From UHGV virus genome UHGV-0011358: a stretch of 56,349 bases of DNA, one strand, 5' to 3'. Under the pieces are notes generated by a model, which was not told the origin of the DNA, did not search any database, and worked only from the letters and a program-made list of their open reading frames with translations. Every line of letters begins with the position of its first letter. The first letter of the stretch is position 1. Made by a program: the position numbers and the translations under genes. This document shows, in pieces, positions 37,366 to 37,908 of this stretch. Source of the stretch: a virus.

Positions 37366-37908
37366 TCAGCCTCGTTTAAAGCTCATAACACGCGGCACAT
37401 ACGCATCTTTTGCTTTCGGCTTACGTTTACCTTTCTTCGCTGGCTTTTCTTCTTCCTTCGGCTGTTCTGCCTGATCTAATGCCTTCTCTACGACTTCAGC
37501 CGCCTGCATTGCTGCAACCTCAGCTTCGTTTGATTCAGCCAGGATCGGGAAAAATGCATCAAACATGCGCCCAATCAGGTAGGCATAAGTCTCGTTTGCC
37601 GGGTGGCTGTCATCAGTGGTAGCCAGCACACCGACATCACTTAAGCAGTGAAAGGTGGCGTGGGCCACTTCATGGACCAGCGTACCTAACTCATGGTCAA
37701 ATACAGCAACAACATAGAAGTTACCGCCGCTTTCACCAGTACAGGTCAACGTTAACCCTCCACAAAGCTCGAAACCTGGATCGATTGGAATCCCTGCCTT
37801 TTCGCAAAATTCATAAAACATCTCGCGGGTCGGGCAAAAGAAAACGGTCGTATGCTCAAAGAGTGGGATCTTGAATTGAGGCAACTTAATGCCTTTAGCC
37901 TTAGCCAT
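37366..37908 (-). CDS. hypothetical protein with HExxH motif (possible metallopeptidase)
   Basis: 180 aa; VHEVAHATFH motif; Lys/Glu-rich basic C-terminus. Confidence 0.5.
   Translation of the reverse strand: MAKAKGIKLPQFKIPLFEHTTVFFCPTREMFYEFCEKAGIPIDPGFELCGGLTLTCTGESGGNFYVVAVFDHELGTLVHEVAHATFHCLSDVGVLATTDDSHPANETYAYLIGRMFDAFFPILAESNEAEVAAMQAAEVVEKALDQAEQPKEEEKPAKKGKRKPKAKDAYVPRVMSFKRG

Follow-up and report, generated by a model that had tools for sequence, protein, structure and literature searches.

We describe a small protein encoded by the virus genome UHGV-0011358, whose 56,349 nucleotides were analysed as a whole and are called the window throughout. Its gene (positions 37366..37908, minus strand) lies between the lysis cassette and the terminase genes of a temperate coliphage. 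The 180-amino-acid product carries a tail and adds a new member to PHROG 1365, a large, phage-specific zincin family that had no prior characterisation. On balance we favour the view that it is a stand-alone, minimal zinc metallopeptidase of the zincin type (HExxH...E, gluzincin-like), acting as a late accessory protein that cuts a protein of the host or of a competitor. An original prediction, made from the DNA letters alone, had noted its resemblance to ImmA/IrrE-type metallopeptidases and taken its place to be unusual. As will become clear, the metallopeptidase survives closer analysis, while neither the family assignment nor the unusual place does.

The gene and its product

The coding sequence, stop codon included, was taken from the list of open reading frames (ORFs) and starts with an ATG. 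A Shine-Dalgarno sequence, AGGAG, can be read directly from the strand at 37918..37922 (minus), 9 nt before that ATG. The window DNA is about 88-90% identical to that of temperate coliphages of the mEpimmI group (PMC11893012), namely mEp021, mEp010, mEp013, mEp044, mEp515, mEp554 and MagusPhagus. The orthologue in mEp021, mEp021_49 (gp49), has 77% identity and is annotated as a hypothetical protein; gp49 is not mentioned in the mEpimmI paper or its supplements (PMC11893012). In residues 1-125, the ratio of nonsynonymous to synonymous substitution rates (dN/dS) against four mEp orthologues lies at 0.06-0.10. The tail gives 0.14-0.24 against the three mEp orthologues with a comparable tail, mEp013 being left out because its tail is replaced and the value unusable. 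In a megablast search of complete E. coli genomes, the metallopeptidase gene was found in 30 and its cognate large terminase gene in 35, so that the gene is near-universal in its type of prophage. The ORF is thus a real gene under purifying selection.

The product can be divided into three parts. A catalytic domain (residues 1-125; 37534..37908, minus) contains the HEVAH motif at residues 79-83 (37660..37674, minus), just as the original prediction had noticed. It is followed by a helical linker rich in Ala and Glu (residues 126-155; 37444..37533, minus) and by a disordered tail rich in Lys and Arg (residues 156-180, KPAKKGKRKPKAKDAYVPRVMSFKRG; 37369..37443, minus). The lysine-rich end that had also been noticed is indeed there: the C-terminus reads ...EEKPAKKGKRKPKAKDAYVPRVMSFKRG and holds 11 Lys/Arg among its final 26 residues. 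The 180-residue protein has neither a signal peptide nor a transmembrane segment, which rules out a secreted enzyme or a lysis enzyme.

Active site and predicted fold

In an alignment of 84 diverse members of the family, 21-64% identical to the window protein, only G51, H79, E80, H83 and E106 are invariant, and V69, F70, T76 and Y110 are conserved at 90% or more. The HExxH motif is present in 133 of 133 full-length representatives of the family. In the window protein its two histidines, H79 and H83, are the predicted first two zinc ligands and E80 the predicted general base, and the predicted third ligand is E106 (codon 37591..37593, minus), which sits in an A-N-E-T-Y-A-Y motif on the helix after the HExxH helix.

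Structure prediction, named in the original prediction as the check for a metallopeptidase fold, bears this out. An AlphaFold2 run from a 6-sequence alignment was poor, with a predicted local distance difference test score (pLDDT) of 62; the run from the 84-sequence alignment, used in its place, reached a pLDDT of 90.7 and a predicted template modelling score of 0.78. The model has strands at residues 11-13, 21-25, 51-57 and 63-69, a backing helix at 28-38, a helix at 74-91 that carries HEVAH and a long helix at 104-148 with E106 of the A-N-E-T motif at its start. This last helix runs on into the linker, whose length varies, and the tail is disordered, with a pLDDT of about 59-63. In the metallopeptidase core of zincins a small sheet comes first, then the helix with HExxH, and a later helix contributes a Glu (PMC5512222). 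As the invariant HExxH and E106 and the order of secondary structure elements in the model match this core, the metallopeptidase fold is supported, and the protein looks, on this modelling, like a zincin-type metallopeptidase.

Comparisons of the predicted fold and of the sequence point weakly in the same direction. Foldseek found nothing significant in the PDB. Among predicted viral structures (BFVD) it gave 22 matches at E≤1e-3, all of them phage proteins and most of them unnamed; among the matches listed, three are labelled SprT or SprT-like and one Metalloprotease. Relatives at the level of the fold occur in Ralstonia phage RSJ2, Pseudomonas phage phCDa and crAss-like phages, whose names or contexts suggest virulent types, and one family member lies in a run of small genes by NrdD/NrdG on a contig that looks like a large virulent phage. 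The family profile reaches PDB sequences only at E 0.14-0.7, with astacins and N4-like virion RNA polymerase. The recurring weak sequence matches in Pfam and the PDB are all zincins: SprT-like, DUF4344, M48, M78, astacins and a region of the N4 virion RNA polymerase. Among the closest known systems are the minimal gluzincins, or minigluzincins (proabylysin and projannalysin), and the 114-residue predicted zincin 3e11. Minigluzincins are zincins of similar size and are active enzymes.

A large family confined to phages

Residues 1-131 of the window protein match positions 3-124 of the 127-position profile of PHROG 1365 (E 3e-28). Named members of this group are Orf-129 of ST64T, Orf129 of phage L, gp70 of epsilon34 and HkcC of HK620 and P22. 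They are true homologues, with 33-41% identity in the catalytic domain, and have the invariant HExxH...NE motif in common with the window protein. Unlike the latter, they are only about 120-130 residues long and carry neither the acidic linker nor the basic tail. The match does not provide a function, because all of them are annotated as being of unknown function (PMC2629481); hkcC itself is listed in this way (PMC2629481).

An exhaustive profile search of 1.84 billion representative sequences at E≤1e-3 put the size of the family at 551 clusters at 50% identity. Its members are mostly stand-alone proteins of about 120 residues. Searching with tblastn gave homologues in 79 cultured phages, all of which are P22-like outside the mEp group, and a tblastn search of cultured phages with the family consensus added nothing beyond the known P22-like and mEp phages. 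A further homologue search that started from an alignment retrieved, for the most part, the close E. coli proteins once more. A scan of a genome collection returned only four loci. Plasmids hold the family in 8 of 72,556 records, several of them the size of a phage.

P22-like phages hold the gene at two sites, and some of them carry both an hkcC-type and an orf-129-type copy. Orf-129 of ST64T, L and epsilon34 is encoded between the lysis and terminase genes, which matches the slot in the window. HkcC of HK620, unlike the window gene, is found in the 'ant moron' directly after the ejection-protein gene 16. P22 itself has an intact 125-residue ORF of the hkcC type (2989..3366 of the P22 locus) which has no coding-sequence annotation in BK000583 and shares sequence with two features annotated there, the sieA promoter and the mnt terminator.

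Placement within the zincin superfamily

A profile search against peptidase families had been suggested in the original prediction. The window protein matches no Pfam family at E≤10, Peptidase_M78 included, and no PADLOC profile or PDB sequence. Its sole NCBIfam match, at 0.25, is to an HExxH hydroxylase model. Four zincin families were compared with it one by one.

ImmA/IrrE proteins (Peptidase_M78, PF06114) are zincins too, with an HExxH motif and a downstream Glu ligand, and are often encoded by phages. Their profile finds 1 of the 84 relatives, at E 0.099, and the score obtained with CapP does not exceed what unrelated zincins give. Unlike what is expected of an ImmA/IrrE protein, the window gene is in a block of late genes and not beside a repressor, it has no profile match, and relatives of its product occur in phages named like virulent types. 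Thus, of the original assignment the zincin-type peptidase remains and ImmA/IrrE does not.

SprT-like, Spartan and Wss1 enzymes are likewise small HExxH proteases, and the basic tail of the window protein could provide a comparable tether to DNA. The SprT-like profile (PF10263; gathering score 25.6 bits) does not match the window protein; it matches 21 of the 84 relatives, all below threshold, with a best E of 1e-4. Four of these matches were inspected and cover, at 12.9-14.9 bits, only 17-20 residues around HExxH. Aligning the family profile to E. coli YggI/SprT with hhalign was uninformative (Prob 6.6%). In SprT and Wss1 enzymes the third ligand is a His. The window family has a Glu instead, and most of its members lack a DNA-binding extension.

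PhageMetallopep (PF18894) has no Pfam match to the window protein either. Against a genuine member of that family (212 residues, PF18894 at 1.4e-42) hhalign gave a Prob of 3.5%, so that the two are unrelated at that level.

The fourth family, MPTase-PolyVal (PF18818), is the zincin-like metallopeptidase domain found in ArdC and in polyvalent proteins. It has the same core of an HExxH helix with a Glu on a later helix and a small sheet before them (PMC5512222), and like the window family it belongs to the conflict and accessory biology of mobile elements. PF18818 does not match the window protein or the nine relatives that were scanned singly, and it is absent from the 25 families listed for the 84 relatives; ArdC of R388, the positive control, was found at 1.2e-48. 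The family profile aligned by hhalign to the single R388 ArdC sequence gives a Prob of 39.6%. Against a profile of the ArdC C-terminal region, built from R388 ArdC and 23 relatives, Prob rises to 76% (E 2.3e-5) over 54 columns that comprise the edge strand and the HExxH helix and leave the Glu helices unaligned. This is the best profile-profile match obtained, and in one public source a homologue with 65% identity goes under the label 'PolyVal Metallopeptidase superfamily domain'. There are also differences: the window protein is a single domain of 180 residues, unlike MPTase-PolyVal proteins, and has no ArdC-N or effector fusion, and its family is almost free of plasmids, whereas MPTase-PolyVal occurs in phages and conjugative elements. 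By sequence, then, the window protein belongs to a distinct family within the zincin superfamily and outside every curated family, of which the MPTase-PolyVal group may be the nearest relative.

Genomic position across the family

That the gene is located between the lysis cassette and the terminase was correctly seen in the original prediction. The lysis cassette (38236..39386, minus), known from its ORFs and from the annotations of mEp021, MagusPhagus and mEp010, lies upstream of the metallopeptidase gene and consists of holin (39186..39386), endolysin (38694..39185) and Rz (38236..38706) with the embedded gene for the Rz1 lipoprotein (38304..38516), all on the minus strand. Downstream follow the small terminase (36309..36794, minus; Pfam Sf6_terminase at 4.5e-37 and orthologue annotations) and the large terminase (34828..36312, minus; orthologue annotations), with the portal gene next.

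This arrangement had been called unusual, and the survey of other loci shows the opposite. It covered 77 viral contigs with relatives, found through a 10-sequence sub-alignment. In 68 of them an ORF of at least 400 residues follows on the same strand within five genes downstream. These ORFs form 10 sequence families, and representatives of six, covering 49 loci, contain Pfam Terminase_6 or Terminase_3. At least 33 of the 77 loci have recognisable lysis genes among the five genes upstream. A position between lysis and terminase genes is typical for the family.

A similar arrangement is seen in two unrelated metagenomic phages with SU10-type portals, where the family gene overlaps the start of an ORF of 161-167 residues, followed by an ORF of 479-483 residues and the portal gene. 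The position is not the only one, however. Other members occur among ERF, YqaJ, SSB and Rha/ANT genes, by an HNH/AP2 gene or beside ParB-like genes. In P22-like phages the frequent neighbours are DUF2560 (40/77), orf-134 (33/77) and PhageMetallopep (12/77). Because the window lacks all three, no partner gene is obligatory, and a fixed partner such as a substrate or inhibitor is ruled out. The 12 loci with PhageMetallopep deserve a separate remark. Here the family gene is directly followed by one for an unrelated HExxH protein of 212 residues (PF18894; for example 7370-8008 of the locus L021), with the small terminase gene downstream of both, and since the two genes adjoin, two putative metallopeptidases stand side by side.

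Linker and basic tail

An alignment of five phage orthologues shows indels of 9-18 residues in the linker, and the tail is conserved among the mEp orthologues. Across the family, long tails (an extension of at least 25 residues) are found in 9 of 133 representatives; six of these nine are strongly basic and one resembles histone H1. As few members are tailed and most of those tails are basic, the basic tail is a recurrent, lineage-specific addition and not a core feature.

In mEp013 the 3' end of the metallopeptidase gene is overlapped by an HNH endonuclease gene, and the tail is replaced by a different one that is again basic (L097, 1674..2679). The original 3' end (TTAAACGAGGCTGATT) persists downstream of the HNH gene, before the first of the mini-genes described below. 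Prophages of E. coli often have this form of the tail, which makes up cluster P0112 with its 108 member sequences.

Proposed role and its alternatives

The role that we favour can be outlined as follows. Residues 1 to about 125 would form the catalytic unit, to which the mEpimmI lineage adds the acidic linker and the Lys/Arg-rich tail. H79, H83 and E106 are predicted to hold Zn2+, and E80 would activate a water molecule for cleavage of the peptide bond in a substrate that may bind along the edge strand (residues 63-69). Through its basic tail the enzyme would become concentrated on a polyanion, most likely DNA. Late synthesis and action in the cytoplasm are probable, because a signal peptide is absent from the protein, and because the gene has its own Shine-Dalgarno sequence and no promoter-like site directly upstream, and forms part of a block on the same strand that runs from Q through the lysis genes and the gene itself to the terminase. 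The gene would be an accessory gene rather than an assembly gene, since it has no fixed partner and its position in P22-like phages is interchangeable, either between lysis and terminase or after gene 16. Its variable positions, the lack of a partner gene, the patchy distribution and the conflict systems among its nearest relatives make an accessory protease acting on a host or competitor protein the best guess. Cleavage of a host protein or of another competitor's protein, for takeover of the host or for counter-defence, is the most likely role, and removal of proteins bound to DNA a less likely one.

Several points weigh against this proposal. The profiles of Pfam, NCBIfam and PADLOC all fail to recognise the protein, H79, H83 and E106 are putative ligands of a common metal site, and the present analysis points to no substrate. 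Gene order is the sole ground for supposing late expression. The survey of gene positions is skewed to enterobacterial P22-like and lambdoid prophages. The tail cannot be central to the function of the family because most members are tailless, and where present it may attach to membranes or to acidic proteins just as it may to DNA. In the literature, we found no paper characterising any family member, no experiment on one, and nothing relevant on SprT-like proteins or metalloproteases of phages in counter-defence.

Among the alternatives, the one that fares best, though we consider it rather unlikely, links the protein to packaging or to the virion. Packaged by means of its basic tail, it would be injected and cut proteins in the newly infected cell, or else it would process a phage protein while packaging is under way; in either case it would be a stand-alone analogue of the polyvalent MPTase domains. 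The gene lies immediately upstream of the terminase genes in mEpimmI and P22-like phages, overlaps an ORF in the position of the small terminase in the phages with SU10-type portals, and has a paralogue, HkcC, directly after an ejection-protein gene. The best profile similarity, moreover, is to MPTase-PolyVal, domains for which a role during or after delivery has been proposed (PMC5512222). However, adjacency need not mean a functional link, because the lambdoid junction between lysis and terminase genes is a general site for accessory genes (PMC2629481), and other members lie in early regions. Most of the family also lacks the tail through which the protein would be packaged. In the GenBank record of mEp021, gp20 and gp41 are flagged as virion or structural proteins, presumably from published virion mass spectrometry, whereas gp49 is hypothetical; as gp49 is not flagged, abundant packaging is weakly disfavoured.

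A DNA-dependent protease like SprT, Spartan or Wss1, clearing roadblocks or crosslinks bound to phage DNA before or during packaging, would suit the basic tail, which is histone-like in one relative, and the adjacent terminase genes. It would also account for the sub-threshold matches in a quarter of the relatives (21/84) and for the fold relatives in BFVD labelled SprT or SprT-like. The confinement of these matches to the residues around HExxH, the uninformative comparison with YggI/SprT, the invariant Glu where SprT and Wss1 have a His and the scarcity of DNA-binding extensions in the family make it quite unlikely. We give equally little weight to the idea that there is no peptidase activity at all, and that a zincin-like scaffold binds a metal or a partner as an inhibitor or adaptor, or hydrolyses a bond other than a peptide bond. 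The activity of the members is indeed deduced from sequence and prediction, the similarity to solved proteases is weak, and the protein is very small, most members having about 120 residues. On the other hand, a general-base Glu and three predicted ligands that are invariant in 84 members are what would be expected of a catalytic site, and minigluzincins of similar size are active.

Less probable still is an association with the membrane and with lysis, in which the basic tail would attach to acidic phospholipids, with small hydrophobic peptides as substrates or partners of the protease or with lysis regulators as its substrates. The gene does come directly after Rz/Rz1, an array of hydrophobic mini-genes that is kept in all mEp phages examined begins only 2 nt past its stop codon, and the Shine-Dalgarno sequence of the first mini-ORF lies inside it. 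Yet the protein has no transmembrane segment or signal peptide, and the members in P22-like phages and in phages with SU10-type portals have no comparable gap, the gene there abutting orf-134 or overlapping the next gene. In mEp013 the HNH gene separates metallopeptidase and array, neither of which is apparently lost.

The least supported of the alternatives, and a highly improbable one, is an anti-repressor protease of the ImmA/IrrE type that controls induction by cleaving the phage repressor or another transcription factor: M78 enzymes do have the HExxH...E arrangement, one relative gives the faint M78 match and the phage is temperate with a CI-like repressor, but the window protein itself has no M78 match and CapP scores as unrelated zincins do, the repressor, which carries an S24 autopeptidase domain of its own, is about 17 kb away from a gene that stands between lysis and packaging functions, and relatives are found in phages named like virulent types and on the contig with NrdD/NrdG.

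The phage genome and neighbouring genes

The two ends of the window (3..623 and 55997..56341) each hold a part of a homologue of gp13, the replication protein of mEp021. Because this gene spans both ends, the window is apparently an entire phage genome, circularly permuted and about 56.3 kb long. Upstream of the late block that holds the metallopeptidase gene is a Q homologue (43769..44488, minus), and the only strong terminator-like hairpin is found ahead of the holin gene (39411..39429).

The CI-like repressor homologue (about 54786..55432, minus) is split by a frameshift near codon 40 into an 85-residue helix-turn-helix ORF (55175..55432) and a 148-residue S24 peptidase ORF (54786..55232), and its intact counterpart in mEp021, gp15, has 198 residues. 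Either the phage is a clear-plaque or defective variant or the split is an assembly error.

An ORF of 232 residues (39469..40167, minus) closely precedes the late terminator and the holin gene. Its N-terminus matches KilA-N weakly and its C-terminus a DUF559/Vsr-like endonuclease, and its first 71 residues match PHROG 23715. It may be an inserted or mobile gene, as the DNA similarity to the mEp phages ends near 39470, at the edge of the ORF.

The hydrophobic mini-genes

The 570 bp between the metallopeptidase and small terminase genes contain six tandem mini-genes (36805..37363, minus) of 22-28 codons, each encoding one hydrophobic, transmembrane-like helix: MIDPLIILSACVAVWLAIMIFIES, MNIYDLIWWSLVAVIIYFWWKNVV, MNAYEMLLLVAVITVIAVDFYRGLKR, MREADFFCIIIVIVIVAVLLSVNGIAGG, MKWLDFFFLIVAIVLTMTALTQ and MKELFDFLETVTYCATLIACLYILCKWF. 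Most have Shine-Dalgarno sequences, that of the first being the one within the metallopeptidase gene. All six are on the strand of that gene, and the opposite strand has none; in 1000 dinucleotide shuffles the number of such ORFs was 0.49 ± 0.64 and six were never reached. The peptides occur in five phages (that of the window, mEp021, mEp010, mEp013 and MagusPhagus) as arrays of 5-12 copies whose differences are mostly synonymous. The mini-genes are unannotated in mEp021 and match no PHROG. This array may deserve a separate look.

Implications for phage biology

PHROG 1365 is a large family restricted to phages. Although it occurs even in P22, HK620 and ST64T, it is without a Pfam model or an assigned function. 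A defensible name for annotation is 'zincin-like metallopeptidase, PHROG 1365 family'. A wider idea, which we regard as unlikely, is that the family is a hitherto unrecognised class of stand-alone effector proteases of phages, in the present case tethered to DNA by a histone-like tail, which would either enter the next host along with the phage genome or, at the late stage of infection, watch over phage DNA and destroy a host defence or roadblock protein bound to it. If this were true, such proteins would correspond, as single domains, to the protease modules of polyvalent proteins, and their frequent placement by packaging and ejection genes would be explained. A mutant without phenotype would make this an ordinary accessory gene. 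If the substrate is a host defence protein or a protein bound to DNA, the family would add a simple proteolytic strategy to the counter-measures of phages.

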